Shown here piece after piece: positions 9,631 through 43,143 of a stretch of 64,000 bases of DNA. Numbering within the stretch: the stretch's first letter is position 1; each line of letters starts with the position of its first letter. The notes below the pieces were generated by a model. The model searched no databases and was not told the origin of the DNA. It saw only the letters and a program-made list of their open reading frames with translations. Source of the stretch: Candidatus Eiseniibacteriota bacterium (GTDB lineage Bacteria > Eisenbacteria > RBG-16-71-46); contig CAVQXP010000004.1 of the NCBI GenBank assembly GCA_963717935.1, forward strand, positions 1,248,001 to 1,312,000, in the 5' to 3' direction. Both the position numbers and the translations under genes were made by a program.

Positions 9631-10073
9631 TGGATGTCATCCTGCTCGAAGACCTGAAGGGCGTGGGCGCGAAGGGCGCCCTGATCCACGTGAAGTCCGG
9701 CTACGCCCGCAACTACCTGCTGCCCCAGAAACTCGCCATCCCCGCCGGCGACAAGGCGGCCAACGTCTACCGGGAGCTCGAGCGCCAGAAGCAGTTCAAG
9801 GAGGACAAGCTGGTCGCACAGGCGCGGCAGCAGGCCTCGCGGCTCGAGGGCGTCGAGGTCAACATCCCCACGCAGGCCAACGAGGAGGACACGCTCTTCG
9901 GCTCGGTGACCAACGCCGATGTGGCCGAAGCGCTCGCCCGGGCGGGGCACGAAGTGGACAAGCACCAGATCGAGATCGCCGATCACATCAAGCAACTCGG
10001 CCGCTACGACGTGCCGGTTCGGTTCTTCGGCGGCGTGAGCGCGACCGTGAAGGTCTGGGTGGTGCGAGCATGA
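9630..10073 (+). CDS. rplI: 50S ribosomal protein L9
   Basis: [27 protein letters not shown]. Confidence 0.97.
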   Translation: MDVILLEDLKGVGAKGALIHVKSGYARNYLLPQKLAIPAGDKAANVYRELERQKQFKEDKLVAQARQQASRLEGVEVNIPTQANEEDTLFGSVTNADVAEALARAGHEVDKHQIEIADHIKQLGRYDVPVRFFGGVSATVKVWVVRA

Positions 10074-11377
10074 GTGCCCTGAAGAGCCCGCGTGCGGTCG
10101 CCGCCCTGGCGGCGACGCTGTTGATCGCCGGAGCCGGAACGCTGGCGGTGGCGGGTGCTGCGAAGGCGCCGAAGGCCACGAAGGGCTCGCGCGCGGTCCA
10201 GGCCCGGACCGTCGCCGCGCCCGCCGACACGTCGCAGGTGCTGGTGCGCGTCGGCGACCAGGCGCTGACGGTCGAGGACGTCCGCAGGCGGCTCGAGGAG
10301 ATCCCCGAGTCGGCCCGCGGGAACTTCGCGACGCCCGAGGGCCGCCGGCAGCTGCTCGACCGCATGGTGGAGGAGCGCATCTGGCTCGTCACCGCGCAGG
10401 AGAGCGGCGTGGCCGACCGGCCGCAGGTGATGCAGCAACTGGCGCAGCAGCGCCGCGACCTGCTCATCCGTACGTATCTCAACGAGACGATGTCGAAGGT
10501 CCCGGCGGTGCCCGACTCGGAGGCGCTGGCGTACTACAACGCGCACCTGGGCGAATACCGCACGCCGGCGGGCGTGACGCTGCAGCACATCCAGACCGGG
10601 ACCGAGGCCCGGGCCCGCCAGGCGCTGAAGCTCGCCCGGGGCGGCCGGGACTGGGCGACGCTGGTGCAGCAGTACTCCGCGGACACGCTCACGCGGGCGC
10701 GAGGCGGAGCGCTCGGGACGGTCACGCGCGAGGGGCTCTTCCCGGCGCTCGGGCGGCAGCCCGCGCTGGCCGAGTCCGCGTTCGCGCTGGGCGCCGGCGG
10801 GATCGGCGGTCCCTTCCGGTCCGACCGCGGCTGGCACGTGCTCAAGGTGGAGGAGATCCGCCCCGAGGGTGTGCGGCCGTTCGACGTGGTGCGGCCGATG
10901 ATCCTGCGCCAACTCGGCGGCCAGCGCGGTCAGGAGTTCTACCGGGAGTTGCTGAACCAGGCCCGCCACAAGCTCGGCGTGGCGCCGGACTCCGCGGCCA
11001 TCAAGAGGTTCGTCTCGCAGAAGCGGGACGCGCGCGAGATGTTCAAGGTGGCCCAGGGCCTGGGCCCGCCGTCGGAGCGCATCGCCGCCTACCGGGCCCT
11101 GCTCGACGAGTACCCCGACAGCGACGTCAGCCCGCAGGCGCAGTTCATGATCGGGTTCATCCATTCCGAGGAGTTGAAGGATTACGACGAGGCGGAGAAG
11201 GCCTTCCGCGAGCTGCTGAGGCGCTATCCCGGGTCCGAACTGGCCGACTCGGCCCAGTGGATGGTGGACCACATGCGCAGCGAGGAGGCCCCGCCGTTCG
11301 ATCTGTCGGAGGCGGATTCGAGCACGGGCGCCCCGCGGCCGCAGGGCACCGCCGAAGGCTCGGCCGGGAAGCCGTGA
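10070..11377 (+). CDS. secreted PpiC/parvulin-type peptidylprolyl isomerase with C-terminal TPR-like domain
   Basis: Signal peptide; HIQ..YSAD..GGALG..GPFRSDRGWHVLKV; YPDS..AQFMIG..YPGS repeats. Confidence 0.85.
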   Translation: MSALKSPRAVAALAATLLIAGAGTLAVAGAAKAPKATKGSRAVQARTVAAPADTSQVLVRVGDQALTVEDVRRRLEEIPESARGNFATPEGRRQLLDRMVEERIWLVTAQESGVADRPQVMQQLAQQRRDLLIRTYLNETMSKVPAVPDSEALAYYNAHLGEYRTPAGVTLQHIQTGTEARARQALKLARGGRDWATLVQQYSADTLTRARGGALGTVTREGLFPALGRQPALAESAFALGAGGIGGPFRSDRGWHVLKVEEIRPEGVRPFDVVRPMILRQLGGQRGQEFYRELLNQARHKLGVAPDSAAIKRFVSQKRDAREMFKVAQGLGPPSERIAAYRALLDEYPDSDVSPQAQFMIGFIHSEELKDYDEAEKAFRELLRRYPGSELADSAQWMVDHMRSEEAPPFDLSEADSSTGAPRPQGTAEGSAGKP

Positions 11378-29602: not shown

Positions 29603-29640
29603 ACGGCGCTGCTGCCGGTCGCGCTACTGGCCGCTCGTGA

Positions 29641-30861
29641 TGACGTCGTCCCAGGATTTCGCGGCAGGTCAGAAGTAGAGCATGCTGCCCTCCGGAGGCC
29701 TACCCGGAGGGGGAGCGATGAAGCGGTCGCGGTACACGGAAGAGCAGGTGGCCTACGCGCTGCGCCAGGCTGAAGCGGGCACCCCGGTGGGGGACGTCTG
29801 CCGGCAGCTGGGCATCGCGGAGGCCACGTTCTATGTCTGGAAGAAGAAGTTCGCAGGCCTGGGGGTCGGTGAGCTGCGTAAGGTGCGGCAGCTCGAGGAG
29901 GAGAACGGCCGGCTGAAGCGGGTGGTGGCGGATCTGACGCTGGACAAGCACATCCTGCAGGAGGCGCTCCGAAAAAAGGCCTGAAGCCGACGCGACGCAA
30001 GGCGCTGGCGCACTGGATCCACGAGCGGTTCCAGGTGAACGTCCGGCGGTCGTGTCGGCTGGCGCTGATCCAGCGGGCGAGTTGGTACTACAAGTCGCAG
30101 GCGCAGGACCAGTCGGGGCTCAGGCTGCGGATCCGGGAGATTGCCCAGGCCCGCCCGCGGTTCGGTTACGAGCGGATCCACACGCTGCTGCGTCGGGAGG
30201 GCTGGCAGGTCAACCGGAAGCGGATTCACCGGCTGTACTGCCTGGAGGGGCTGCAGGTGCGGATGCGGGTGCGGCGGCGGAAGCAGATGAGCCTGCACCG
30301 GGGCCCGGTGCCTCGTCCGACGGCAGCGAACGTCCACTGGAGCATGGATTTCGTGCACGACCAACTGGCCGACGGGCGGCCATTTCGGGTGCTGACGGTG
30401 ATCGATCAATGGAGTCGTGAGAGTGTGTTGCTGGAGGCGGGTTCTTCGCTGACTGGGAAGGCGGTCGCGGAAGCGCTGGATCGGGCGTCCTGGAGGCGTC
30501 CCTTGCCCAAGGCGATCACCGTCGATCACGGCACCGAGTTCACCTCCAAGGCGCTGGACCAATGGGCCTGGCAGCGCGGGATCGAGTTGGATTTCATCCG
30601 CCCCGGTAAGCCAATCGAGAACGCGCTGATCGAGTCCTTCAACGGGCGGCTGCGGGACGAATGCCTGAACGTGAACGAGTTCGTTTCGATGGAGGATGTG
30701 CGGCACCGAATCGAGGCCTGGCGGCTCGACTACAATCACCGCCGGCCGCATGGCTCGCTCGGGAACCTGACCCCCAGCGAGTTTGCCGAACAGAGTCAGG
30801 AACGTGCCTCAGGAGGGGCGGCAGTCTAGTTCAGATCTGTCCGAAAACGGGGCCGACCTCA
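29641..30861 (+). mobile_element. IS3-family element (IS407-like), 1221 bp
   Basis: Imperfect IRs TGACGTCGTCCC...GAAGTAGA / TCTAGTTC...GGGGCCGACCTCA; 4-bp target duplication GTGA (29637-29640 and 30862-30865). Confidence 0.95.
29718..30829 (+). CDS. IS3 transposase OrfA (29718-29984) and OrfB, joined by a -1 frameshift
   Basis: MKRSRYTEEQ HTH; WSMDF, DHGTEF, ESFNGRLRDECLN DDE core; A6G slippery site at 29972-29978. Confidence 0.93.
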
Positions 30862-30922
30862 GTGAGCGGCGGAGTCCAGTTATCCTTTGTCTACTTGACG
30901 GGGAAGCTTACGGAGGCATCAC

Positions 30923-31567
30923 GTGTCGGTCATGCTGAGGACCTCGTTGCCGTGGGTGCTCGTGGGCGCGCTGGCGTGCGCGGGCGCGTGTTCGTCCGGG
31001 GACGGCGCGGCGCCCGCACCGACCAGGAGCTTTTCGGAGGTCTTCTTGAGCGTCGACGCATGGAGCGAAGCGCGCGTCATGACGCTGGTCATCGATGGAG
31101 CCGGCCGTCGGACCGGATGGAATAAGGGGGAACAGTTCCGGGAAATCGTGGGATGTGGACTGGGCTTCGGGACCGAAGAGGGCATTCCGAACCCCGAGGG
31201 GGAGCCGGACGACACGTCTGCGACCACCCCGCCGGAGCCTCTTCCAGGAGATGCAGCCGTCGACACCGTGTCCGGTGAGCGGGAACCGACGCCAAGGTAC
31301 TACTACTTCCACATCTCTAACGATGCGGTTACCCCGGTTGGTCTCATCGACCAAGGTGGATGCGAGCTGCGGTTGGATCCCACAGCGGCTGGCAAGGTGC
31401 AGCTTGGGCTCAGCGCGAAGAAGGGGGTATTCATTCTGTGCGAGGACACGACATCGGTCTGGGTAAGGCCCGGGGTGCCGTTGCGCTGGCGGCTGAGCTG
31501 GAAGGCTCAGAGAGACAGATGCGTTGTGAGGATCTCCAAGCTGCCGGCAAGATCTCCCAAGCGCTGA
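30923..31567 (+). CDS. putative lipoprotein A, paralog of 36389-37003
   Basis: GGAGG RBS; lipobox-like ALAC/AGAC; shares IDxxGRRTGWN, EPTPxYYY, GGCELRL, CxDTTS, WxLSW with the paralog. Confidence 0.75.
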   Translation: MSVMLRTSLPWVLVGALACAGACSSGDGAAPAPTRSFSEVFLSVDAWSEARVMTLVIDGAGRRTGWNKGEQFREIVGCGLGFGTEEGIPNPEGEPDDTSATTPPEPLPGDAAVDTVSGEREPTPRYYYFHISNDAVTPVGLIDQGGCELRLDPTAAGKVQLGLSAKKGVFILCEDTTSVWVRPGVPLRWRLSWKAQRDRCVVRISKLPARSPKR

Positions 31568-31663
31568 GCGGCACGCAGTCGCCCCCGTTGATCTCGTTTG
31601 GAGGCAAGCGCCGCGATTGACATTGGTCGGAGGTCCAGCACCGATTCCAATTCTCCATCCGTA

Positions 31664-32140
31664 TCAGCCTCCAATCGTCGTGAACCGCCTCCCCTCGTAC
31701 GCGCGGTGCTGCAACGCCTCGGCCAACGCGCGCACGCTGACGCACTCCTCGCTGGTGAGATCCGCGATCGTGCGCGCCACGCGCATCGCGCGGTGAACCG
31801 CGCGTGCGGACATCCCGCCGCGATCCACCGCATCGGCGACGAGCCGGCGCCCGGCCTGATCGAGCGCGCAGCACTCGTCGAGCCGCGCAGGGGGCAGGAG
31901 TGCGTTCAGGCATCCGCGCTCGCGCTGGCGCGCCCGCGCCGCGAGCACGCGCGCCCTCACGACCGCGCTCGACTCGCCCAAGGATGCCGCCTGCAGCTCG
32001 CGCGACATCAGCGCCGGCACCTCGACCTGGAGATCGATCCGGTCCAGCACCGGTCCGCTCACCCGCGCGTGGTGCTGCGCGAGATCGGTCGGCGTGCACT
32101 TGCAGCCCCGGCGTGGATGTCCGAGCCAGCCGCACTTGCA
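31664..32140 (-). pseudogene. comM: displaced 3' third of comM (YifB), starting at CKCGWLG, without start codon
   Basis: Collinear with 37063-37536; 16 differences in about 147 aligned aa; homology stops abruptly at 32140. Confidence 0.92.
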
Positions 32141-32148
32141 CCGTTGCG

Positions 32149-32580
32149 TTGCCTTTCTGCAATCTCCGCCTTGTTGGCCGCCGACCTCGTGTGTTCCCAA
32201 GGGGTTACCCGCAGGCGCCCCGGTCGCTCGGGGAGCGCATACGCCAGCGACGGATGGACCTGGGGCTGACGCAACGAACCCTTGCCGAGCGGCAGGGCTG
32301 CTGGCCGGAGACGGTCGCGGCGTGGGAAAGGGGCGAGAGCGAGCCACTGGCCCGGCGGTGGCCAGCGATCGAGGCGGTCCTCGGAACGGGGCTCGTCCTG
32401 GAATGGGGCGGCCTCCCGGGGCGGGTCCGGGCCGCCCGGCTCCGGCTGGGACTCACGCAGGAGCAGGTCGCTGCCCGTACCGGGCTCGATCCTCGGACGG
32501 TTCGGAACGTCGAGACCGGGCGGCATGGGCCGAGCCGGAGGACTGCCGAGCGGTTGGCGGCGGTCCTCGGCACACTGTGA
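32149..32580 (+). CDS. tandem XRE/HTH_3 transcriptional regulator
   Basis: Two XRE repeats: SLGERIRQRRMDLGLTQ..WERGESEP and RVRAARLRLGLTQEQVA..VETGRHGP; start uncertain (TTG 32149 or GTG 32191). Confidence 0.8.
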   Translation: MPFCNLRLVGRRPRVFPRGYPQAPRSLGERIRQRRMDLGLTQRTLAERQGCWPETVAAWERGESEPLARRWPAIEAVLGTGLVLEWGGLPGRVRAARLRLGLTQEQVAARTGLDPRTVRNVETGRHGPSRRTAERLAAVLGTL

Positions 32581-35006
32581 GCCCCAGCCCGCCAATGAGG
32601 GCGGGACGAGCGTTGCGGCTCGGCTTCGCCGCCCGGAAACTTCCCTTGCCCGCCGTCTGCCATGGGGGTGTACTGTGCAACGGACGCACGCCCCGCCGCG
32701 GAAACAAGGACTGCTGACCACCGGACCTCATCTCCGACTCTCTGGCACGGCGGGATCGTGGGGGCCGCCGGCGGGACTCGACTCGCTAATCGAAATGAGT
32801 GCGCAAGCGCCCGCTGGCTTGTTGGCGTGCGGAATCACACGTGTTCTGACGATGGGAGGCCCACCCATGACAATCAGACTGGCTGTCTTGGTGCTGGTGT
32901 TCGCCGCGTTCCATCCCTTGCCCGTGGTGGCGCGAACTCCGACCAACGATGCGGCCGCCTTCCGCACCTTTGATCTTTACTCGGACCGCGCCGGGGCGGT
33001 AGGGACTCTGGATCACCTCAACTTCTCCTCCTCCTACCCTTCCTACCTGATCAGTCCCGCCTACATGGTGATCCACACGGTCGGAGGCGTTCCCGATACG
33101 GTTGCGCTCCTTCACCTGCAGCCGAACGATGCCACGGGGATGGAGGTGAACGGGAGTACCCCGACGTCCTACGCCGAGTACGCGGTGGTACCGCCAATAC
33201 TCGCCACCTCCATCAGCGTCAGCGTCAACGCCGATGTCGTCTTCGCGGGGCTCGGTCAGTACTACGACTTCCTGAAGCCCCTGGCCACGATCACGGTCAC
33301 CTACGAAGACGCTTCGACGTGGATGGACACGTTGCGCGTGGGCCAACACATCAGGACCTGGCTGAGCGGGAGCATCACCTGTTTGGGGGATCTCTGGTAC
33401 ACCTACAACACGCCGCCGTTCGACCAGTACGCGGTCCCTCTGTATGCCAGCGGGGGCGTGTTCATGGACATGCAAGAGGTCCGGCTCCCGCACGTGCCCA
33501 AGAAGATAGCCCTGATCCGAGTGCAAGCCATCGCGCTCGACCACTTCTGCAGCATCTACAATCCGCACCTCTACGCTGGCTACCATCTCCACGCTGTCTC
33601 GATCTGGCCGACGTTCAACGTCGCAAACGCCTCGTCGCAGCCTGTCGTGTGGCAGTCCCAGTTCACGAACGTGGACCACGGCGGCTACATGTTCGGCGGC
33701 ATCCCCGTCGGCACCCGACGACTGATGAACCAGACCGCGTGTCAGGTCGCATCCCAGGCGATGTGCTACACGTACAGTGGCTTCAATTGCACGCCGACAG
33801 CTCTCAACACGTATCTTCAGCAGAATAGAGGCTACGTGCCAGATCAAGTGGCCATCGTGACGTCCGTCGCACCGGGCGGAGCCTCGATTCGCTATACGGC
33901 TACAGGAAAGACAACTCTGAAGGTCGGCGACAGATTCCTCGTTGAGCACGGCACCTACACGAACCCGCTCGCAACGTACCAGGTGACGGTCGCGGGTCGC
34001 CTTGGCCAAGCATCTCGCGTCGCAACCCACAACGCGGCTGTTCCCTCGGGCGACGATCCCGGTCGTGTGTACTGGAAGATGAAGCCTCGGGTTGCCGACG
34101 GGTTCACCAGCAGCCCACAGCTTCGCTCGATTGACCTCTACGACTCGCCGCAGCTTGCTGCTCAGGTCGAGAGCCTGCTCGTGCGGGACATCGCGGTGCA
34201 ACTGAACGTGCCCGACCACTTCGTCGTCGCGTCGGGCTGGACCTCGTCGTTCCGCCCGGATGGCAGCGCACGAGGGACCTACGCGATCAAGGACCCCTTC
34301 GACGACAGGGACTACACCAAGCTCATCGAAGGGAAGTACGCCAACAAGTTCGCGATGGCCCGCTACGTTGTCCCGACTGGCGCGCTGGAGGTGGCGGGCA
34401 GTGTCGCGGCGCTGAGTGACCCCCCGGGGCTTGGCATCCTCGCCAGTGGCGCTCGCCGCGTCGAGGTCATCGACCCGCTCGGCCGACACATGCTGCGCGA
34501 CGCCAGTACGGGGGAAGGCATCTACGAGATTCCGGACGCCTGCATCGAGGACGTCTCCTCAGAGCACGACAACGGCGGGGACGTGGACGACCCGCTGACC
34601 GGCTACGACATTGAGATTCCGACGACGGTCGATGGGCACTACACGGTGACCGCGTACTCAGACGACGGCCTCTCGCTGAGCGCGAACGGCTACACGTCGT
34701 CGGGCATCTTCGCTTCGGACGGCGCCGTGGACACGACTGCGGCGCCCGTGGGCAATATCTACGACGTGCTCTACTCGGGGTCGGGGCAATCGGTCTCGGT
34801 AAGCCACACCGCCACGCTTGGCGTGAACATCACGTCGCCCCTGTTCGGCCCGAGCCGTCTGCGGGTGCGCCAGAGCCCTGCTACGGGTCCCGTGGAGTTC
34901 GTCATCATTGCCGCGGAGATGACCGCAGACGTCATCGACGTGTTCGACGTTAGTGGTCGCCGTGTGGACGCGGTGCAGGTGGACGGCGGCACAGGCACGC
35001 GGACGA

Positions 35007-36278
35007 TGCTTTGACCCCCAGTTCAGCGAGACACCTCCGCAGGGTACCATTGAGGTCCTGGGAGGGCAGTCATGGAGAACGTGGCCAAGGGTTCCGATGG
35101 GCGCCGACTGTTCACCGCCGAGTTCAAGCGCACGCAGATCGATCGGATCTTGAAGGGGGAGATCACCGCCGCGGAGCTGAGTCGTGAGCTCGGCGTGGCG
35201 CGCACGCTGATCCAGCGCTGGAAGTACTTGGTTACCAAGGGGGCGGAGGCCGCGGTGGGCTCGAACGGCGAGGTCGTCGCCGTGGCCGAGCTGCGGGCGG
35301 CGCAGGGGCGGATCAAGGAACTCGAGCGGCTGGTGGGTAAACAGGCCATGGAGTTGGAGATCCTGCGCGTGGCGCGCGACGAGGTAAAAAAAAGACCGCG
35401 CTACTACGGCGTGTCCGCGAAGCGACCGGAGGGTCGGTCGCGATGATCTGCCGCACGCTGCACATCGGCCGCGCGACGGCCTACCGCAAGGATCGCCCGC
35501 GACCTCGGCGCTATCGCCGGCAGGAGGACGAAGTGGTGCTGGCCCAACTGCGGCAGATGCTACGCGAGCGCGCCAGCTACGGCTATCGCCGCGCCCGCCG
35601 GATCGTCAATCGCCAGTTCGGCACCACCTACAACCGCAAGCGGATCCAGCGGGTGATGCGCCTCTATGGCCTGGCACTGCCGGTCCGGGGTCGCCGTCGC
35701 CGCGGGCGCCGGCACGAGGGCCAGGTCGAGTGCGTGATCTCGAACCAGCGGTGGTGCTCGGACGTGCTGGAGATCGCGTGCTGGAACGGCGAGGTCGTGC
35801 ACCTGGCGTTCGCGCTCGACTGCTGCGACCGCGAGGTCCCGGCCCACGTCGCGACGCCGTACCCGACGTCGGGGATCGAGATCCGCCGGCTGATCCGCAA
35901 GACCGTCTTCGCGCGCTACGGGAACGAGAAGCCCGCGGTGCCGATCGAGTGGCTCACCGACAATGAGGGGATCTACACCGCACTCGAGACGGTGATCGAG
36001 GCCGAGCGGCACCACCTGGCGCCGATCACGACGCCGGTGGCGAGCCCGGAATCCAACGGCATGGCCGAGGCGTTCGTGAACACCTTCAAGCGCGACTACG
36101 TGGCAGGTGGCGACTTGGCCTCGGCGGCACGCGTGCTGGAGCAGATCCCTGGCTGGATCGAAGACTACAACACCTTCGCGCCGCACTCCTCGCTCGGGAT
36201 GCTGTCCCCGGCCGAGTTCCGACTCGAACAGCAGACAGTTGCAGACACCGGGTGTCTCACGAAATAGGGGTCAAAGCA
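35007..36278 (+). mobile_element. IS3-family element (IS2-like), 1272 bp
   Basis: IRs TGCTTTGACCCC..GAGACACC at both ends; target duplication ACGA (35003-35006 and 36279-36282); precise excision restores the host reading frame. Confidence 0.95.
35072..36267 (+). CDS. IS transposase OrfA (35072-35446) and OrfB (35443-36267), probable -1 frameshift
   Basis: RRLFTAEFK HTH; SNQRWCSD, WLTDN, ESNGMAEAFVNTFKRDY; A8G at 35386-35394. Confidence 0.93.
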
Positions 36279-36388
36279 ACGATCACATGGGACTGGCGCA
36301 CAATCGGCACCCGCTCTGGCGTCTACCTCGCCCGGCTGCGCTCTCGGGCCAACGAGACGGCTCGGTTCGTCATCCTCCGTTGACGAAC

Positions 36389-37003
36389 ATGAAGCGAGCG
36401 TTCTACGGGGTAGTGGCCTGCGTGGTCCTGGGCGTGGGAGCATGCGCGTTGCGCTCCAGCGCGCCCTCCAGCACTTCCGGGAAGTTCTTGCAGGTGCTCG
36501 TGAGCATCTACGCCTTCGGTGATGCGCGTGTGGGTGCTGTGCTCATCGACCGCGAGGGCCGCCGAACGGGCTGGAACGTTGATCGACCGATCCGGCAGAT
36601 ACCGGGAGTGTTGAACGGGTACGGCTCCGACGTGGGCATTACTGACGAGAGCACGCCGGCGGATACGACGGAACCACCCCCCGCTGACACGGTACCCGGA
36701 CATCCCGAGCCGACGCCCATTTACTACTACCTCTCGATTCAGGATTCAGCAGGAACACCCGGCCTGCTCCGGGAGGGCGGGTGTGAGCTCCGCCTCGTCC
36801 CCGTTGCGGGAGGTCGCGTCAGCCTCGCGATTACCGGGACGGGGGCCGGATTCAGCCCGTGCCAAGACACGACCTCGTTCACGGTCACACCTGGCGTCCC
36901 CACGCGATGGTGGCTGAGTTGGAGCAAGAGTGGGAACAAGTGCGTCGTGGACCTCTCCAGAATGAACCGGAGCAGGCCGCGACCTCAGTCGCGCGTCAGG
37001 TAG
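36389..37003 (+). CDS. putative lipoprotein B, co-transcribed with the C39-like gene
   Basis: Starts 5 bp after the restored stop of the C39-like gene; MKR..VGAC lipobox-like; paralog of 30923-31567. Confidence 0.8.
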   Translation: MKRAFYGVVACVVLGVGACALRSSAPSSTSGKFLQVLVSIYAFGDARVGAVLIDREGRRTGWNVDRPIRQIPGVLNGYGSDVGITDESTPADTTEPPPADTVPGHPEPTPIYYYLSIQDSAGTPGLLREGGCELRLVPVAGGRVSLAITGTGAGFSPCQDTTSFTVTPGVPTRWWLSWSKSGNKCVVDLSRMNRSRPRPQSRVR

Positions 37004-37062
37004 CATCTTTGGGCTTGCGCTTCGCGCAGGCAATGAACGAAAGCCGTGTGTTGCGGGGCTGA

Positions 37063-38577
37063 TTACCGGGCTGCGGCATGCCACCTTACTTCGGTTGCCC
37101 GGTACTGCAACGCCTCCGCCAACGCGCGCACGCTGATGCGCTCCTCGCCTGCCAAGTCCGCGATCGTGCGCGCCACGCGCGTCGCGCGGTGCACGGCCCG
37201 GGCGCTCATCCCGCCGCGGTCCACGGCGTCGGCGACGAGCCGGCGCCCGACCTGATCCAGCGCGCAGCACTCCTCGAGCCGAGCGGGCGGCAGGAGCGCG
37301 TTCAGGCAACCGCGCTCACGCTGATGCGCCCGCGCCGCAAGCACGCGCGCGCGTACCACTGCGCTCGACTCGCCCGGCATCGCCGCCTGCAGCTCGCGTG
37401 ACGTGAGCGCCGGCACCTCAATCTGAATATCAATCCGATCCAACACTGGCCCACTAACTCGCGCGTGATGTTGTGCTATATCAGTCGGAGTGCAGCGGCA
37501 GCCGCGTCGCGGATGCCCGAGCCAGCCGCACTTGCAGGGATTCATCGCCGCCACGAGCAGTGCGCGGGCGGGGAACTCGCTGGCGCCGCTGGCGCGGACG
37601 ATGGTGACCGTGCCGTTCTCGAGCGGCTGGCGCAGGGCGTCGAGCAGGCCGCGCGCGAACTCCGACAACTCGTCGAGGAAGAGCACGCCGTGGTGGGCGA
37701 GCGAGATCTCGCCGGGGCGCGGCGGGGAGCCGCCGCCCACCAGGCCCGCGGGCGAGACCGTGTGGTGCGGTGCGCGGTAGGGGCGGCGCGTCATGAGTCC
37801 CCGCCCGGGGCGGCGCAGCCCGGCGGCGGAGTGCAGGCGCGTGACCACCAGCGCCTCGTCGGGCTCGAGCGGCGGGAGGATGCCGGGCAGGCGCCTGGCG
37901 AGCATGGACTTGCCCGCGCCGGGCGGGCCGATGTAGAGCAGGTGGTGCCCGCCGGCAGCGGCGATCTCGAGCGCCCGGCGCGCCACGGCCTGCCCGCGCA
38001 CCTCGCCGAGGTCCTCGCTCGTGGCGGGCTCCGGGTCCGGCGGCGCCGGGGCCTGGCGGGGCGACTCCGCGCCGCGCAGCCACTCGACCGCCTCGTGCAG
38101 GGTGCCCACGGCGTGCACGACGAGGCCCTCGACGAGCGCGGCCTCCGGGGCGCAGGCGGAGGCGCACAGCAGGCTCGTTACGCCCGCGCGCCACAGCGCC
38201 TCGGCCAGGGGCAGGGTGCCCCGCACGCCGCGCAGGCGGCCGTCGAGCGCGATCTCGCCCAGCGCGGCCGCGTCTTCGAGACGCTCGCGCGGGGCCTGGC
38301 CGGTGGCGACCAGCACGCCGAGGGCGACGGCGAGGTCGGCCGAGGCGCCTTCCTTGCGGCGCTCGGCGGGCGCGAGGTTCACGGTGACCTTGCGGTCGGG
38401 GAGCTGGAAGCCCGCGTTGCGCAGCGCGGGCCAGACCCGGTCGCGCGCCTCGCGGCCGGTGGCGTCGGGGAGCCCGACGAGGACGAAGCCGGGCAGGCCG
38501 GGCCCGACATCCACCTCGCACTCGACCGGGAGCGCCTCCAGGCCCCAGAGGGCGGCCGTCCGCACGCGGCTCAGCAT
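37063..38577 (-). CDS. comM: ComM/YifB Mg-chelatase-like AAA+ ATPase (intact)
   Basis: VGLPD, VNLAPA, GPPGAGKSMLARRL, RAPHHT, GVLFLDEL, AMNPCKCG, SGPVLDRID. Confidence 0.95.
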   Translation of the reverse strand: MLSRVRTAALWGLEALPVECEVDVGPGLPGFVLVGLPDATGREARDRVWPALRNAGFQLPDRKVTVNLAPAERRKEGASADLAVALGVLVATGQAPRERLEDAAALGEIALDGRLRGVRGTLPLAEALWRAGVTSLLCASACAPEAALVEGLVVHAVGTLHEAVEWLRGAESPRQAPAPPDPEPATSEDLGEVRGQAVARRALEIAAAGGHHLLYIGPPGAGKSMLARRLPGILPPLEPDEALVVTRLHSAAGLRRPGRGLMTRRPYRAPHHTVSPAGLVGGGSPPRPGEISLAHHGVLFLDELSEFARGLLDALRQPLENGTVTIVRASGASEFPARALLVAAMNPCKCGWLGHPRRGCRCTPTDIAQHHARVSGPVLDRIDIQIEVPALTSRELQAAMPGESSAVVRARVLAARAHQRERGCLNALLPPARLEECCALDQVGRRLVADAVDRGGMSARAVHRATRVARTIADLAGEERISVRALAEALQYRATEVRWHAAAR

Positions 38578-38640
38578 GGGCCTGCTCCCGGGGAGGCGGG
38601 TCGCGGGGGTGACGCCCGGAGCAACGCAAGCACCGCGCCA
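38440..38640. repeat. 201-bp direct repeat, copy 1 (comM codons 1-46 plus 63 bp upstream)
   Basis: Matches 42811-43011 except one base (38632 A vs 43003 G). Confidence 0.95.
38625..38640 (-). promoter_or_regulatory. sigma54-type -24/-12 promoter of comM
   Basis: Minus strand TGGCGC-GGTGC-TTGCG with exact GG-N10-GC spacing, about 50 bp upstream of the ATG; also present in copy 2 (42996-43011). Confidence 0.6.
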
Positions 38641-38868
38641 ACCCCAGGAACGCAACGGGCTCTCAATCCCGCGCGCCGGTTCGACCCTCCAGCGTGAGCT
38701 ACAGCACGCTCCGGGGCCACGCAGACCCTCGCGGCCAGGACCAGCCTCTCGATAAGCCACGCCCCCAAAAATACCCAATGGTCGACCTCTTCTTCGGATT
38801 GCCCCGAGGACAATCACGCAGTGCTTGCGGTAGCAGGGCTCGGCCGGGCACGTGCGTATATCTTTCCC

Positions 38869-38896
38869 TTGACACTGACCTGGCGAGGAATATCTT
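38869..38896 (+). promoter_or_regulatory. sigma70-type promoter for the S8 protease gene
   Basis: TTGACA-N16-TATCTT. Confidence 0.5.
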
Positions 38897-39183
38897 CCGC
38901 ACAGGTTCTCAGGGGAACCCAAAGCAAGGGTTCACGTGACCTTGCCTAGGAGGGTTGTGATTGGTGCAACGCCTCTCTCGATTCGTGAGGCAACCGAATC
39001 GCTCCATAGTTCCAGACTACATTCTAACTGAGCGGCAGAACGCACCTCGTGACACGCGACTCACCCGTCTCCTGTCCATTCATCGTCCAATGGAGGAAGG
39101 ATGAGGAAGTAGCATGGGCCGCATCATGACCACACTACCCGGAAGTTTTCTGCGTCTCAGCAAGCCGCCCTGTGGAGGGTTCT

Positions 39184-41943
39184 ATGCGCTGGTACACAGT
39201 AGTGCTTCTCCTGGGATGTTGTGGCGTGGCATACGCAGGAGACAACCAAACGGGCCAAGCATGTCTGAGTTGGTCCGCAGAAGGCGTGGTCACAAGGGAC
39301 GACGCTGCTCCTCAAGCGCTATTCCCGGTCTTCGTACACGTTGACGGCGCTCCAAGCATCAGCGGTCTCTCTGTATGTCTCCGCTGGAACCCAAGCTCGT
39401 ACGTGTTGGTGAATCCACCGGCGGATTGGAAGGCTGATGTCGGATACAACGTTAATGTGGCTCCGCACGCCACGTTCGCAGACGACGCCGCATTTGACGC
39501 GACAATTGTCTTTCCAGCCCCTCCTGGCGATCACGCAGTCGTAGCCTATTGGTTCCGATATGCGGCCACGGGGGCACCGCCCCCTGCCACGTTCTGCCTC
39601 GCTCAAGTCAAGGCAATGGATGGCGCTGGCGCAATCGATGATCTCGCGCTGCTTGATGGATTGAGTCTGGGCGGCCGCGCCGTGACTGACGGGTGTCCGC
39701 CGACTCCTTCGCACATTGCCAGGGGAAAGCTGCTCGTGCTGATGCGTGCGGAGGCTCTCAGCTCAGGGAGTGACCAGGAGCTAGCGTCCCCTGAGCAACT
39801 GTTGGCTTCTCGCGGAGCAGCAGACTCCCTTGCCGCCGCCGGGGTGCTTGCCATGGTGCGGATCTCCCCGGTGGGCCTGAGCGGCGGCACGTGTTCGCGC
39901 AATCTGATCGGTGAACCGATTGTGCTGCCTGACCCCGGCGCGGTCTACGTGGCCCATCTGCGTCCTGACGTTCTGGCGAAACGTGCCGCATTCGCGCTCT
40001 CGGACGTTAGCGCCGTCAGATCCGCACGACCAATTCCCCTCGTGCAACTCTACCACACGCCACAGGATCCTATGTTCAGCCGGCAATGGGCGCTCAGCAA
40101 CACGTCCCAGACCTATGGCTGTACGCTTCCTGCCTTCAATGCGAACACAGATATTCATCTGCCTGCTGCACTGGACATGACGGTCGCTCGTGGAGCTGGG
40201 GTGCGCGTCGGGGTATTGGACTCAGGGGTTCAAAGTGACCACCCGGAGCTTATAGGTCGCGTTGAGGCAGGTCACAACGCCATAGCACACTCATATGGGT
40301 TGGACTGGGCGACTGAAGACAGCACGTCGCACGGCACGGCGGTGGCCGGCATCATCGCGGCTGCAAGTGACAACGGCATTGGTATAGCTGGCATCGCGGA
40401 TGCCGCGACGATCGTGCCAATCCGCCTTAACTCCGGATACTACTTTCCGCTGGAGGTTGGGACCAGTTGCATGTCTGACTTCCCCAGCTTCCCGCTAGAT
40501 GCTGCGCTAGACGGGTTATGGTGGGCGACTGATTCTACGTCGACGATACCGATTCTCAACATGTCGTGGGGCACCGTAGCTCCGGAGGAGTACACTCCCT
40601 ATCTTGCGACGGCCTGCCTTGCGGGACTGTTGAAGGGGCAGTTTCTGGTTGCGGCATCTGGAAACGACAACTGGGGCCATCCCGACTGGGTTCCGGCACC
40701 AGCCAGGTACGCGAAGCGGGTGTTTTCGGTCGGGGCGGTCTTCGGTAATGGTCTGCGATGGGATGACCGAGTGCTCCCCCAGCCGCTAGGTGGCTGGGGA
40801 ATGTTCAGCGCGTTGTCAAGCTGGGTGTTGGGCTACCCGGTCCCCATCGGCTCGAACTGGGGCCCTCACCTAACTGCCGTGGCCCCTGGCGGACACATGA
40901 TCGCTGCGCTGCGTATGTACACCTTGGTCGACTCGCTCTATCGCTGGAAATACATTTTCGACTGCGCCCACAAGTATTTCGAAGTTGACTCGTGTGGCGT
41001 GAGTTATGCAGACATGGACTCCGTGGAATTCGGTGGGACATCTGCGGCGGCGCCAACCGTTGCGGGTGTGGCCGCTCTGATACTCGGAGAGCATCTAGGG
41101 GCCTTGGTGGGCGAGGACATAACCCAAACACTTATCCGGACGGCGGTGGATCCGATCACTGGCGCTCCAAGCAGTGGGAGAAGCGACACGTTAGGGGCAG
41201 GGATGATCCGTGCCGACCGGGCACTGGCCTTTCTCGCTTCCCCGAAAATCATCGATCATCCCCGTGCCACCAGCCTCGCTGTTGCGGACGTAGACACGGT
41301 ACAGGTCAGCTTCACAGGAGGCACGCCCGGGATTCCTGATGGCCAGTACGATGCTGTTAGGTATCGCCTGGCCGGTCGCGCAGCGTTCTCTCAAGCGTTG
41401 TACGCAGATACTGGGTCGACATGGGTGCGGGCATCAGGAACTCAAGGCATGCTGGATGTCTCTACGTACAACTACTTGGCGGATGTGCCGTTTGGGCGAA
41501 TCACGTCCATAGACACATTGGGCGTTGACGTGGAGACCTTTGTCTACCAGGTCTTGAGTGGTGGCAACGTGCTCGCGTGGTATCCGTGCGACACCGCGTC
41601 AGCCGCGGTGGCAACGACTGCTGTCGGGTATCCCCCCGCCGTAGCGGGAGTGGGTGTAGAGCCTGCGCTTCGCTTTGGAATCACGGTTTCCCCTACCCCA
41701 ACCCGAGGACGGGCAGTGCTGAGCCTCCTCTGCCCGGGGCCGGCAATTGTCGAGGCAGGTATCTACGACGTGCAGGGGCGGGTTGTGCGTCACCTTGGTC
41801 GTCGGTCAGTGGCAGGAGGAACTGTGCAGTATGTCTGGGACGGTCGGCGAGATGACGGTGGATATGCAGCGGACGGCGTGTACTATGCGCGCGGGATCGC
41901 CAATGCTCAGTCGAAGGTCGTAAGGGTTGTCTTACTCAGATGA
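39184..41943 (+). CDS. secreted S8 (subtilisin-like) serine protease with C-terminal FlgD-Ig/CTD-like domain
   Basis: Signal peptide; triad VLDSG, SHGTAVAG, GGTSAAAP; oxyanion ASGN; tail IYDVQGRVVR..WDGR..GVYY..VVLLR. Confidence 0.92.
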   Translation: MRWYTVVLLLGCCGVAYAGDNQTGQACLSWSAEGVVTRDDAAPQALFPVFVHVDGAPSISGLSVCLRWNPSSYVLVNPPADWKADVGYNVNVAPHATFADDAAFDATIVFPAPPGDHAVVAYWFRYAATGAPPPATFCLAQVKAMDGAGAIDDLALLDGLSLGGRAVTDGCPPTPSHIARGKLLVLMRAEALSSGSDQELASPEQLLASRGAADSLAAAGVLAMVRISPVGLSGGTCSRNLIGEPIVLPDPGAVYVAHLRPDVLAKRAAFALSDVSAVRSARPIPLVQLYHTPQDPMFSRQWALSNTSQTYGCTLPAFNANTDIHLPAALDMTVARGAGVRVGVLDSGVQSDHPELIGRVEAGHNAIAHSYGLDWATEDSTSHGTAVAGIIAAASDNGIGIAGIADAATIVPIRLNSGYYFPLEVGTSCMSDFPSFPLDAALDGLWWATDSTSTIPILNMSWGTVAPEEYTPYLATACLAGLLKGQFLVAASGNDNWGHPDWVPAPARYAKRVFSVGAVFGNGLRWDDRVLPQPLGGWGMFSALSSWVLGYPVPIGSNWGPHLTAVAPGGHMIAALRMYTLVDSLYRWKYIFDCAHKYFEVDSCGVSYADMDSVEFGGTSAAAPTVAGVAALILGEHLGALVGEDITQTLIRTAVDPITGAPSSGRSDTLGAGMIRADRALAFLASPKIIDHPRATSLAVADVDTVQVSFTGGTPGIPDGQYDAVRYRLAGRAAFSQALYADTGSTWVRASGTQGMLDVSTYNYLADVPFGRITSIDTLGVDVETFVYQVLSGGNVLAWYPCDTASAAVATTAVGYPPAVAGVGVEPALRFGITVSPTPTRGRAVLSLLCPGPAIVEAGIYDVQGRVVRHLGRRSVAGGTVQYVWDGRRDDGGYAADGVYYARGIANAQSKVVRVVLLR

Positions 41944-42144
41944 TAGCCGAGCTATCACATGCCCGATCGATGGCGTCGGACGGTTGAGGACTCACCCACG
42001 GCCACCCGGACGAGGGACGTGCTCGGGGCGTTTCGTCTATTGACGCGATGGGATCTTTGGCGCATGCTTGTTGTGGCCGGGACAGGGGCAACCTGTCGTC
42101 ACTTGCCTCTGAAATCGGTCGGAGGCAATTGTTCGGGAGGAACC

Positions 42145-42744
42145 GTGAAGACGCTCATCGCCATTCTTGTCCTCGCGATGGTGGGTTTAGTGCCCCCGAT
42201 CGCCCGAGCGACGGCCGCTGACAGCTGCGGATATGCATATGCGGACGACTTCACCACGAACGCCGTAGAGGTCGACAGCTACTCGCATACAAAGATTGAG
42301 GAGAGCTTCTGCTTTACGTGTGGAAGTGGATGGCTCATGTTTGCCACCGATTCGACCGGGAACCGCGGCCTTGGCTTCTATCCTGGCCTGCTATACGGCT
42401 CGCAGAACGCCTATGTGACGTACCGATTTCCGCAGGACGGCATCGCAGGAGGGATGGTCGGCAGTCTGGCATTCGACGCTCTGTGCTATGTCGGTCTTAC
42501 TGGGGATGGTGGGTTTGCTTGGGCCGATGTAGTCGTCCTCTATGACGACGTGTACGCAGCAACGGCGCACATCTCAGAACCTGGCCACTACAGGTTCGAA
42601 CTAGCACCGCCCCTGACGGCGTCGAAGGTGTACCTCCACATCACTGGTCAGCTGTTCCGGTTGGACAATCTGTCCGTATGCTTGGACGTCTCGACGCCAA
42701 CCCGCACCACGACGTGGGGAAGGCTCAAAGCGTTCTACCGTTGA
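42145..42744 (+). CDS. secreted protein with C-terminal PTRTTTWGRLKAFYR motif
   Basis: GGGAGG RBS before GTG; signal peptide; characteristic terminal motif. Confidence 0.8.
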   Translation: MKTLIAILVLAMVGLVPPIARATAADSCGYAYADDFTTNAVEVDSYSHTKIEESFCFTCGSGWLMFATDSTGNRGLGFYPGLLYGSQNAYVTYRFPQDGIAGGMVGSLAFDALCYVGLTGDGGFAWADVVVLYDDVYAATAHISEPGHYRFELAPPLTASKVYLHITGQLFRLDNLSVCLDVSTPTRTTTWGRLKAFYR

Positions 42745-42810
42745 CGGTAATCAGCCAACACTCTTGCGGGCCGGTCCTCTTGGATTGGTCCGCATCGTCT
42801 TGTATCCTAA

Positions 42811-42948
42811 GTCGCGCGCCTCGCGGCCGGTGGCGTCGGGGAGCCCGACGAGGACGAAGCCGGGCAGGCCGGGCCCGACATCCACCTCGCACTCGACCGG
42901 GAGCGCCTCCAGGCCCCAGAGGGCGGCCGTCCGCACGCGGCTCAGCAT
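42811..42948 (-). pseudogene. comM: truncated comM 5' fragment (46 codons, MLSRV..REARD) running into cassette sequence and stopping at 42751
   Basis: Identical to the first 138 bp of intact comM. Confidence 0.92.
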
Positions 42949-43011
42949 GGGCCTGCTCCCGGGGAGGCGGGTCGCGGGGGTGACGCCCGGAGCAACGCAA
43001 GCGCCGCGCCA
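42811..43011. repeat. 201-bp direct repeat, copy 2
   Basis: See 38440-38640. Confidence 0.95.
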
Positions 43012-43143
43012 GCTTGCGGTCAGGCCGGCGGGGGCGGGGCGGCCGCTGAGCTCCGGAGCCTCTGCAGGCCCGGGCGCCGCGGCCATCTGCCACTGCCCGG
43101 GCCGATGCCCGCCGGGGACGCTGCGGCAGCACTCGATTTGCGC

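Follow-up and report, generated by a model that had tools for sequence, protein, structure and literature searches.

A probable remnant island of a large serine recombinase family beside an intact comM gene, and a second insertion site near the start of the gene

How can foreign DNA enter the same gene twice, leave no recombinase behind and still not break the gene? This question is raised by the comM locus of an uncultured sediment bacterium (genome G000, a MAG of five contigs), which lies in the 64,000-nucleotide stretch of DNA that we analysed and call the window. As the original prediction stated, one intact comM is accompanied here by two orphan pieces of the gene, all three in the same orientation:

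37063-38577, minus strand: intact comM, a YifB-family AAA ATPase of 504 aa with Mg_chelatase, ChlI and Mg_chelatase_C domains
37063-37536, minus strand: island-borne (foreign) 3' third of intact comM, with a drop in GC and identity relative to the 5' part
31664-32140, minus strand: orphan comM 3' third, equivalent to residues 348-504 (Mg_chelatase_C, E 1.2e-26); a displaced native piece, the B' side of attR
38440-38640, minus strand: repeat copy A, joined to the intact gene; codons 1-46 (REARD) and the 63 nt that precede them
42811-43011, minus strand: repeat copy B, consisting of native upstream DNA and the orphan 5' piece of comM, whose codons 1-46 lie at 42811-42948

Both insertions have kept comM at full length, again as predicted: the intact gene scores 511.8 bits against TIGR00368 (cut-off 362.4), with residues 7-493 covered. 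The absence of any tyrosine or serine recombinase from the two cassettes is borne out as well, and it extends to the whole window. Domain scans of the cassette ORFs gave only IS3-type transposases (rve, HTH_Tnp_1). A six-frame HMM search of the whole G000 genome found just two matches for PF00589, both on contig C1, and one for PF00239 (C4:1829517). By these same scans and searches cassette 1 has no recombinase or transfer genes of its own. By GC the cassette DNA looks foreign: the genome is at about 71%, but 38641-42810 has 57-65% and 33000-34000 about 60-62%.

Cassette 1 (32141-37536) appears as a 5.4-kb remnant island beside intact comM. Its parts and its immediate neighbours are the following:

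30923-31567, plus strand: lipoA, a small putative lipoprotein gene, native downstream neighbour of the displaced comM 3' third; N-terminus signal/lipobox-like by eye; no family match in Pfam or NCBIfam
32139-32153, minus strand: attR core, comprising attP half-site GGCAACGCAAC, GG, and TG (positions 1 and 2 of the Cys348 codon)
about 32149-32580, plus strand: gene for an XRE-type regulator with two HTH_3 domains (E 1.3e-22), adjoining the orphan third; start codon uncertain
32867-35006, plus strand (rest of the frame at 36279-36383): cargo gene for a 714-aa putative secreted protein, its sorting-type tail cut by IS#2
35007-36278, plus strand: IS#2, IS3-family, with orfA 35072-35446 and orfB 35443-36267 (HTH_Tnp_1, rve, rve_3)
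36389-37003, plus strand: lipoB, a small putative lipoprotein gene, paralogue of lipoA, carried in with the foreign comM 3' third
37522-37556 (approximate extent), minus strand: regenerated attB (B arm, TG, B' arm) inside intact comM, at AMNP/CKCGW

The two copies of the 3' third (31701-32140 and 37097-37536) are 85% identical (373/437) over 440 nt, and the homology of the orphan ends exactly at a 20-nt identical block that codes for CKCGWLG. The break between NP and CKCG is the predicted attB of a family of large serine recombinases (LSRs), with the TG that opens the Cys348 codon as crossover dinucleotide. The 13-mer directly before this TG in the attR core is found also in the relatives G004, G021, G010 (twice), G106 and G005. 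In all of them, and in G000, GGCAACGCAACGG adjoins TG (again twice in G010), and variants of it occur in G022 and G005:C72. The attL junctions of relatives, seen in seven genomes, read TG-nn-GTTGCGTTGCC, where GTTGCGTTGCC is an inverted copy of the attR arm. The reconstructed attP is an 11-nt perfect inverted repeat with a 6-nt spacer and TG at its centre; an intact, unintegrated attP, such as GGCAACGCAAC CTCATA CCTGCGTTGCC, was present in 4 of 79 loci scanned. The G000 genome has no attP-like site anywhere. What it has, at the junction in the window, is the attP-type half-site that marks an LSR-integrated element. The regenerated attB in intact comM bears no attP-type arm on either side, and its junction sequence equals that of uninterrupted comM genes in relatives. 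Of 41 related genomes, 8 have orphan 3' fragments that begin at residues 341-348, and independent genomes share the target nucleotide.

Next to the att site the window holds no recombinase gene (Resolvase plus Recombinase, plus zinc ribbon); such a gene is found at the same comM site in eleven other genomes (G005, G022, G027, G041, G054, G055, G057, G083, G106, G140 and G179). Orthologues of the G022 and G027 LSRs occur in 16 of the 206 genomes of the class, and in all ten relatives' contexts examined the LSR gene adjoins comM at residues 344-350. The family is 50-66% identical across many phyla. Among the best 80 loci of a cross-phylum comparison, the LSR adjoins comM in 37, while 10 have less than 200 nt of visible flank; the other 33 have 4 kb of flank, yet no comM match, meaning that either the family is not exclusive to comM or many copies are unintegrated. 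Two LSR types that are mutually only 27% identical use the same comM site. The best NCBIfam matches of these LSRs are CcrB/CcrC, far below cut-off. G000 is without a cognate LSR, and its sole serine recombinase is 27% identical to either type.

Full elements at this site, which split comM, look ICE/IME-like. Their recombinase gene and their XRE regulator occupy opposite ends, and they also carry a coupling-protein-like gene and defence genes. Judged by sequence and position, the XRE gene is the conserved right-end gene of this element family; its homologues (68-82% aa identity) are in the equivalent position in G010, G106 and G005. The original prediction had named remnants of ordinary integrase-bearing islands as its own counter-case, and cassette 1 largely answers to that description, as integrase-bearing islands of relatives share its right end (XRE gene and attP arm). 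Islands of the same type without an LSR are present in G004, G021, G010 and G005. A tandem of both kinds is seen in G106, in the order comM 5' part, XRE gene, LSR gene, comM 3' third (a), cargo, XRE gene, comM 3' third (b), and a complex form of it in G005. Breakpoints recur at the same nucleotide with variable cargo, as anticipated, and the cargo of relatives commonly consists of predicted secreted hydrolases with type IX-type tails, which had also been anticipated. The cassettes of the window were expected to encode proteases and to look foreign. The latter holds by GC; a protease can be demonstrated solely in the S8 subtilase of cassette 2, and the 714-aa protein (32867-35014), whose signal peptide and C-terminal tail were judged by eye, has no Pfam or NCBIfam match. 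It has a 25%-identical homologue in the equivalent island of G005.

The duplication in cassette 1 reaches past comM to the two small lipoprotein genes, which share 42% aa identity. Both this extension and the XRE gene next to the orphan third had escaped the original prediction. That the island moves from lineage to lineage is seen in comparison with G028: in DNA, lipoB is 76% identical to a comM-adjacent gene there and the 3' end of the cargo gene 74% identical, whereas the comM core reaches 67%. Within intact comM, GC goes from 0.77-0.80 in the 5' part to 0.69 in the 3' third, and identity to G004 from 89.7% to 83.1%; identity to G006 and G007 is equal in both parts, with no drop. Identity by itself does not settle which copy is to be called foreign, because any two relatives share about 80-85% identity in their 3' thirds. 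The 100 nt just 5' of the comM junction are 99% identical to G005. A close relative from public run X4 (99% identical) is without cassette 1, and its uninterrupted comM has a 3' third of the orphan type (5 differences in 120 nt).

Cassette 2 sits at a second, independent site at codons 46-48 and brought its own copy of the comM start:

38641-42810, plus strand (38440-42810 including copy A): cassette 2, consisting of 530 nt of non-coding DNA, the S8 subtilase gene, the gene for a 261-aa protein and a 66-nt end
39172-41943, plus strand: S8 subtilase (Peptidase_S8, E 4.6e-29; FlgD_ig, E 1.3e-7)
41959-42744, plus strand: 261-aa protein with no assigned family, also cargo of cassette 2

The C-terminus of the subtilase scores 31.9 bits on FlgD_ig (cut-off 27), making it a candidate cargo tail of type IX secretion. 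Copy A is probably the island-borne copy. Its homology to the upstream DNA of relatives ends at 38629-38631; that of copy B to G005 continues past 43011 to 43045, in the native region before a histidine kinase gene. In G006 and G007 comM and the kinase gene are adjacent. No DNA match to cassette 2 was found in any fetched locus of relatives. Among 102 genomes of the order, three (G000, G151 and G031, from two families) have an orphan 5' piece that ends at codon 46-48 and then passes into unrelated DNA, so the second of the two sites originally proposed recurs in two further genomes. Three more such orphans were rejected as contig ends or contig overlaps.

What history would produce this arrangement? 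The one that we favour, and hold to be fairly probable, is that cassette 1 is a recombinase-less island of the LSR family left behind when a tandem LSR element excised, with cassette 2 at an independent second site. Under this proposal comM would hold the chromosomal attB of a widespread LSR family, with crossover at the TG of the Cys348 codon. On its right, cassette 1 would end in a true attR, which comprises the XRE gene, attP half-site GGCAACGCAAC-GG, TG and the native 3' third that was displaced. On its left there would be, rather than attL, a foreign comM 3' third joined at the same TG, and because of this joint both comM and attB would be rebuilt. The island would have arrived as part of a composite, in tandem with a recombinase-bearing element; attL would then have recombined with the inner attR, so that this element excised by itself. 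Its excision would leave a comM that is whole, an attB that can be used again, and the island. As the G000 genome is without the cognate recombinase, the island would now be stranded, any further move requiring a new element to arrive and take it along in cis. None of these steps was observed in G000 itself, where no circular form, attL or LSR is present; neither is cassette 1 in tandem with a recombinase-bearing element in the window, a state known from G106 and, in complex form, from G005. Cassette 1 also lies outside the classical definition of a cis-mobilisable element (CIME), because in place of an attL/attR pair it has a true attR on the right and on the left an attB-like junction (B-TG-B') without an attP arm. 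It would gain attL only once a new element integrates beside it. The origin of the comM 3' third and lipoprotein gene of the first island is left unaccounted for by this best explanation.

Several other histories can be suggested. If an LSR acted directly in trans, a circularised island could enter by recombination of its attR-like site (P arm, TG, comM 3' third) with attB. Such a reaction would reproduce attB and attR, and the cassettes would be autonomous plug-ins needing nothing but the trans-acting recombinase. The expected products, attB-like on the left and attR on the right, do match those of G000, G004 and G021, and several genomes have islands without LSR. However, in serine integrases synapsis is limited to attP with attB, and attL and attR dimers are auto-inhibited unless a directionality factor is present. 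This mode of entry conflicts with those rules, no circular island junction was found, and the tandem state of G106 offers a canonical route to the same product; we regard it as quite unlikely. An ancestral LSR element might instead have decayed in place, its LSR side being replaced by homologous or illegitimate recombination with the comM and lipoB of a relative, possibly through natural transformation, so that comM was repaired and the XRE end remained as a scar. The lipoprotein gene in the duplication is what copied-in chromosome of a relative would be expected to contain, and the right end is the same in kind as in full elements. Yet the switch from native to foreign sequence falls at the att site, with 99% identity to G005 and the X4 relative reaching to within about 28 nt of TG, whereas the whole 1.1-kb 5' part would be open to a homologous crossover. 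G004, G021, G010, G005 and G106 have the same precise architecture with other cargo, which also speaks against repair in place; we consider such a repair unlikely. ComM-assisted transformation, raised in the original prediction, finds no support for cassette 1, where the conserved attP half-site and the position of the junction, at the central dinucleotide, speak for site-specific recombination.

Cassette 2 poses a different choice. Circular DNA with about 200 nt of comM 5' sequence could have entered by a Campbell-type single crossover, with no site-specific recombinase involved, and we give this a real, if lesser, chance. Copies A and B are 200/201 identical (192 exact positions, one A/G mismatch, 8 more), which is the classic signature of insertion-duplication and fits homologous recombination equally as well as site-specific integration; no recombinase gene or conserved end motif lies beside any of the three orphans at this site. 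Against such an entry, three genomes from two families all have their break within codons 46-48, their copies reach just 25-63 nt upstream of the start codon, and the two copies in G031 and G151, being only about 90% and 78% alike, were brought in and not duplicated. Chimeric joining of strain variants during assembly would concern both cassettes. The genome is a five-contig MAG, and strain variants are visible in public runs (loose ends at 32409 and 37193, presence or absence of IS#2). Short, low-depth contigs of public runs X1-X3 are identical to the window over both cassettes, one of them bridging 38543-38821, although they are not independent proof, since the runs may be the source samples. 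With the same architecture in independent genomes, including the single-contig genome G004, and a functional-looking att half-site at the junctions, an artefact is very improbable. A broader reading would make comM a self-renewing, two-site landing pad for stackable, lineage-swapped cassettes of type IX hydrolases. As each cassette carries a spare comM end (the 3' third at Cys348 or the 5' start at codon 46), each insertion would rebuild the gene and its docking site; the cassettes would be an evolved hitch-hiking form, possibly using an LSR in trans by a non-canonical exchange of attR with attB, and the codon-46 site would be served by an undescribed recombinase or mechanism. This reading we think improbable. 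The excision of a tandem LSR element remains our preferred account of cassette 1.

Known systems offer parallels to that account. SCCmec, pseudo-SCC and composite islands at rlmH of staphylococci use a serine recombinase site in a conserved gene that is kept intact; SCC elements stack in tandem, and their recombinase-less cassettes can be moved only with a helper. The comM islands, as we read them, share these features. Because the SCC site is so close to the end of the gene (its last few codons), no coding sequence has to be replaced there; between the comM site and the stop codon, in contrast, there are 470 nt, and a third of the gene has to come with the island. AbaR-type and other comM islands use Tn7-like transposition or other integrases. 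According to the relevant part of a review (PMC12378983), they inactivate comM in Gram-negative bacteria, where the gene is a recurrent target of mobile elements; the target is shared with our locus, but here comM stays whole. Fifteen islands at ssrA of Dehalococcoides are described without an integration module, in a setting of tandem islands downstream of a single-copy gene and a CcrB-like serine recombinase, and in the sections concerned the authors proposed cis-mobilisable elements spread by accretion (PMC3146451). Our elements are alike in recombinase, tandem arrangement and the lack of an integration module in some islands. They differ from that description, with its tmRNA target, 20-bp direct repeat and dehalogenase cargo, in having a protein-coding target, a diverged duplicated coding segment of 440-470 nt and secreted-hydrolase cargo.

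Closest in target are two reports on LSRs. According to the target-gene passages of Durrant et al. 2022 (PMC10083194), 12.4% of predicted site-specific LSRs, and several diverse LSR clusters, target the "magnesium chelatase/ATP-dependent protease" gene; target genes are treated there as disrupted upon insertion. Target gene and recombinase class are shared with that account; here, gene and attB are restored by a comM 3' third that recombinase-less islands bring as a replacement. The description of the Wolbachia prophage WO variant sr1WO in PMC9203015 has the magnesium chelatase gene as the integration target of an LSR, with HTH_XRE regulators at the opposite end of the element. We liken our elements to it by target and layout (LSR at one end, XRE at the other); as described there, the gene is left split by sr1WO, a tailed prophage, whereas ours look ICE/IME-like and the island in the window is beside an intact gene. 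The original prediction took CKCG for an undescribed system. Instead, the ten contexts above point to the attB of an LSR family, and LSR targeting of comM is already published (PMC10083194, PMC9203015); next to what these passages report, the unusual part is the state of cassette 1, with no LSR, no attL and a foreign 3' third.

An apparently integrase-free puzzle is thereby turned into a concrete system in which attB and attP are defined (inverted arms of 11 nt, TG at the centre), and a state is documented in which the target gene of a serine recombinase is repaired by cargo-bearing islands and not left broken. This is relevant to the debate on why mobile elements often occupy comM, as selection seems to keep comM whole here, and to the spread of accessory secreted hydrolases among uncultured sediment bacteria. 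The att pair may serve as a broad-host integration tool, and the codon 46-48 site is a lead to a further integration system.

Both insertion sequences in the window had been credited with target duplications of their own. IS#1 is outside the comM islands proper:

29641-30912, plus strand: IS#1, IS3-family, with orfA 29682-29984 and orfB 30035-30829 (rve, rve_3, HTH_21)

No target duplication was seen at the ends of IS#1. A second copy, 98% identical, is at C4:1736054-1737321, and a contig of the relative in run X4 is without IS#1 and has its joint at 29640. For IS#2 the claim stands: it shows every feature of the IS3 family, with two overlapping ORFs (HTH, then DDE rve), inverted repeats at its ends and a clear 4-nt target duplication, ACGA. 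In contigs of runs X1 and X2 position 35002 is followed directly by 36279, the IS#2-empty site in the population.

The window lies in a genome of 3.0 Mb in 5 contigs with 71% GC (G000). It had been predicted to hold three pieces of comM and two cassettes that lack a tyrosine or serine recombinase. Six-frame family searches of the whole G000 genome, together with alignments, confirm this with corrections; no recombinase of either kind is found in the window. The features are as follows.

37063-38577, minus strand: intact comM, 504 aa
31664-32140, minus strand: orphan 3' third of comM (31701-32140 is 85% identical to 37097-37536)
42811-43011, minus strand: orphan 5' piece of comM, inside a 201-nt repeat (copy B; identical to copy A, 38440-38640, at 200 of 201 positions)
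32141-37536: cassette 1, with an XRE regulator gene, a 714-aa protein without known family, an IS3 element and a small lipoprotein gene
38440-42810: cassette 2, counted with repeat copy A, encoding an S8 subtilase with a FlgD_ig-type C-terminal domain and a 261-aa protein without known family

Orphan comM fragments starting at residues 341-348 are present in 8 of 41 related genomes, and several contigs end at residues 347-350. At the window's orphan third, GGCAACGCAACGG stands immediately before the TG that opens the Cys348 codon. This 13-mer is identically placed in G004, G021, G010 (two loci), G106 and G005, with variants in G022 and at a further G005 locus (C72), and in every case an XRE gene with HTH_3 domains adjoins the motif. 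In two relatives (G022 and G027) the 5' two-thirds of comM runs directly into the C-terminal end of a gene for a large serine recombinase (LSR) with Resolvase and Recombinase domains. Orthologues of this LSR (58-69% identity) occur in 16 of the 206 genomes of the class, a search that returned none from G000, and all ten contexts examined among these 16 abut comM at residues 344-350. G000 has no cognate recombinase; it has two tyrosine recombinases and one unrelated serine recombinase. Both tyrosine recombinase matches are on C1, a 246-kb contig of lower GC, where 11 kb separates them (C1:66205-78352), and the only serine recombinase lies beside IS-like repeats (C4:1824951-1831013). Either could be a mark of other mobile elements.

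The comM-proximal junctions of the LSR elements read TG-nn-GTTGCGTTGCC, an inverted copy of the motif beside the orphan thirds, which allows attP to be reconstructed as GGCAACGCAAC and GTTGCGTTGCC on either side of a 6-nt spacer, the central dinucleotide being TG. No attP-like site is found in G000. An uninterrupted site of this form directly follows the recombinase gene in 4 of 79 loci from other phyla. The element is integrated in both orientations, with either its XRE end or its recombinase end beside the 5' part of comM (G106:C20/G106:C3, G083 and G179 in contrast to G022, G027, G041, G054, G055, G057 and G140). The two orientations fit perfectly symmetric attP arms with a flipped central dinucleotide, and we infer that this dinucleotide alone sets the orientation. 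G005 has a second LSR type, 27% identical, that targets the same place, with a crossover apparently a few bases upstream. The crossover points of different LSRs seem to overlap without coinciding. At two loci of G005, a genome of the same genus (C171, L087 3950-4450; C231, L086 at about 7116), the XRE-arm-TG junction of an island is joined to the arm of another element and a further serine recombinase gene, and the 5' part of comM breaks 5 nt before the TG.

When an alignment of 15 recombinases was searched against a one-genome-per-species collection, at least 555 relatives of the LSR were found, the best 80 of which are 50-66% identical (loci L093-L172). The relatives span Acidobacteriota, Bacteroidota, Verrucomicrobiota, Alphaproteobacteria, Patescibacteria and MAGs labelled archaeal (Thermoplasmatales, Thermococci). 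Such high conservation across distant phyla suggests either that the element has a very broad host range or that some MAGs are contaminated. In 37 of the best 80 loci comM lies directly against the recombinase gene, in 33 as residues 1 to about 350 in convergent orientation and in four as residues 344 onward, co-directional; ten more of the 80 leave less than 200 nt of room, and 33 have room without a comM match.

What kind of insertion is cassette 1? Its right junction is a true attR, and its left junction has no attP arm. At the same TG, the 5' part of comM is joined there to a different 3' third, which leaves the gene complete and gives the site the sequence of an attB. GC falls at this junction from 0.77-0.80 to 0.69 in the 3' third, and identity to comM of G004 from 89.7% to 83.1%; the last 100 nt ahead of the junction are 99% identical to G005. 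A relative represented in sequencing run X4 has an uninterrupted comM and lacks cassette 1. Its 5' part is 99% identical to that of the window, its 3' third matches the window's orphan at 96% over the first 120 nt, and DNA from beyond the IS3 element at 29641-30912 follows. Taken together, the drops in GC and identity and the X4 relative show, if not entirely cleanly, that the 3' third of the intact gene is the incomer and the orphan third the native one. Against this it counts that comM 3' thirds are all about 80-85% alike and that G006 and G007 show no drop in identity. The incoming piece carries a lipoprotein gene, a paralogue of the gene beside the orphan third. Together with the 3' end of the cargo gene, it is 74-76% identical to comM-adjacent DNA of G028, a genome of another family, while the comM core is only 67% identical, from which it follows that the island has passed from one lineage to another.

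G004, G021, G010 and G005 have islands built in the same way, from a comM 3' third, cargo, an XRE gene, an attP arm and an orphan third, without a recombinase. The expectation of recurrent, gene-preserving cassettes without a recombinase is borne out. In G106 the island stands in tandem with a full element, in the order comM5'|XRE...LSR|comM3'(a)-cargo-XRE|comM3'(b). The full element resembles an integrative conjugative or mobilisable element, given its genes for a coupling-protein-like product, a ThsB-type TIR protein, DUF932, RadC, nucleases and a methylase.

A mechanism can be suggested. A composite of element and island would excise through attL x outer attR and integrate into a new comM. 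If the element were then to leave alone, through attL x inner attR, comM would be restored with the island's 3' third and attB would be regenerated. This mechanism is supported by the att half-site, the common breakpoint, the presence of the recombinase at this site in relatives, the occurrence of the tandem state, the precision of the junction and the fact that G000 lacks a cognate recombinase. Other explanations can be set beside these observations. Homologous recombination might have patched the gene in situ, which is unlikely, and direct mobilisation of the island in trans, through attR x attB, is decidedly unlikely. That the arrangement is a product of misassembly we consider highly improbable. 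With departure of the element from a composite as the preferred explanation, the window shows a derived, stranded island and not new integration machinery. The original prediction spoke of an undescribed system; at the main site we find a known kind instead, an LSR attachment site in comM.

The published LSR work of Durrant et al. (PMC10083194) is in agreement with the pairing of LSR and comM, and the LSR of phage WO, sr1WO, integrates into the magnesium chelatase gene of Wolbachia, with HTH_XRE regulators at the far end (PMC9203015). The pairing of recombinase and target is therefore already known. A 2025 review describes inactivation of comM by various elements in many Gram-negative species (PMC12378983). 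A literature search, incomplete and hence no proof of absence, found no published LSR islands that restore comM. What is new here is the gene-repairing form of the island, its tandem dynamics and a second site for which no recombinase was found.

Pseudo-SCC elements follow the same logic of accretion and mobilisation as proposed here. It has also been proposed for the integrase-less ssrA islands of Dehalococcoides and for cis-mobilisable elements (PMC3146451). Unlike in all of these, the comM site lies 470 nt inside the gene, and the island must therefore carry a third of the coding sequence; also, the left border of the lone island is attB, not attL.

Several observations concern rearrangements of comM and its surroundings. 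G010 has further comM 3' fragments away from comM (G010:C146, L034 at about 9758-10208; G010:C2, L035 at about 10445-10955), one of them with an attP arm and lying between duplicated pieces of FIST and thiolase genes, as though islands, or the ends of islands, had been relocated or rearranged at other places in the genome. In G021:C1 (L032 7844-9628), a single 651-aa frame has comM residues 1-109 and then 97-477, which suggests that an insertion or duplication took place inside the gene near residue 100. In the window, 32409 and 37193 are loose ends: contigs of sequencing runs X1-X3 match it beyond these points and differ before them, which indicates that strain variants co-occur whose sequence is different on the XRE/attR side and at the 3' end of comM.

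The second site, at codon 46-48 of comM, is a different matter. In G006 and G007 comM and the kinase gene are adjacent and cassette 2 is absent; none of the fetched loci has a DNA match to it. Past copy B of the repeat the sequence runs on as native upstream DNA, and the homology of copy A to relatives ends at 38629-38631; the incoming copy is therefore probably the one joined to the gene. Of 102 genomes of the order, three (G000, G151 and G031) have orphan 5' pieces ending at codon 46-48 with unrelated DNA after them; this count and the 8 of 41 at Cys348 took in one genome flagged as unpublished (G026), on which no specific claim depends. In all three the duplicated stretch extends only 25-63 nt upstream of the comM start codon. 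The two 5' copies are about 90% alike in G031 and about 78% in G151. Because the repeats of G000 are nearly identical, Campbell-type homologous insertion of cassette 2 is a live explanation for that genome, possible if rather doubtful.

A second order has no such orphan pieces (0 of 35 genomes). In a third, 3 of 41 genomes have contigs that end at codon 46-51; these were rejected as orphans, since G203 has a 141-nt contig overlap, G185 an overlap of strain variants at 97% and G170 a plain contig end, and they offer no more than a hint of graph branching in that order. No recombinase for the site was found: in G151 and G031, secreted-protein genes are all that the short contigs beside the orphan 5' pieces encode, and by eye the element-side sequences share no motif. 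comM upstream regions diverge too fast among relatives for alignment to place the boundary of cassette 2. X4 has neither a contig bridging 38640 to 43012 nor depth over cassette 2, and missing contig cover proves nothing. An exact 10-mer of the attP arm, AACGCAACGG, is present at 38649-38658 on the plus strand, 9 nt inside the left end of the non-repeat part of cassette 2; a similar GGAGCAACGCAAGC is found in the native comM upstream region, where its 'cgcaag' core is conserved in the genus. The 10-mer could be a relic half-site, or a promoter-like element or coincidence.

Beside the second site are a GH16/CBM6 enzyme with a sorting tail (G151) and a FlgD_ig-tailed protein (G031). By Pfam, a FlgD_ig-type or Por_Secre_tail-type domain is present in five of the nine island cargo ORFs examined.

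Tailed cargo proteins (Pfam)
G000: S8 protein
G021: GH43-like protein
G010: GH32-like protein
G151: GH16 protein
G031: 729-aa protein

Since the whole 3.0-Mb G000 genome has just 37 FlgD_ig matches, the cargo looks enriched for such proteins, in a count made after the fact and on related genomes. By eye, the 714-aa protein of cassette 1 has a tail of this type as well, split by the IS3 element at 35007-36278. This insertion is polymorphic in the population: contigs of X1 and X2 that are otherwise identical to the window join 35002 to 36279 (35003-36282 in the window), and the joint restores the C-terminal sorting tail of the protein.
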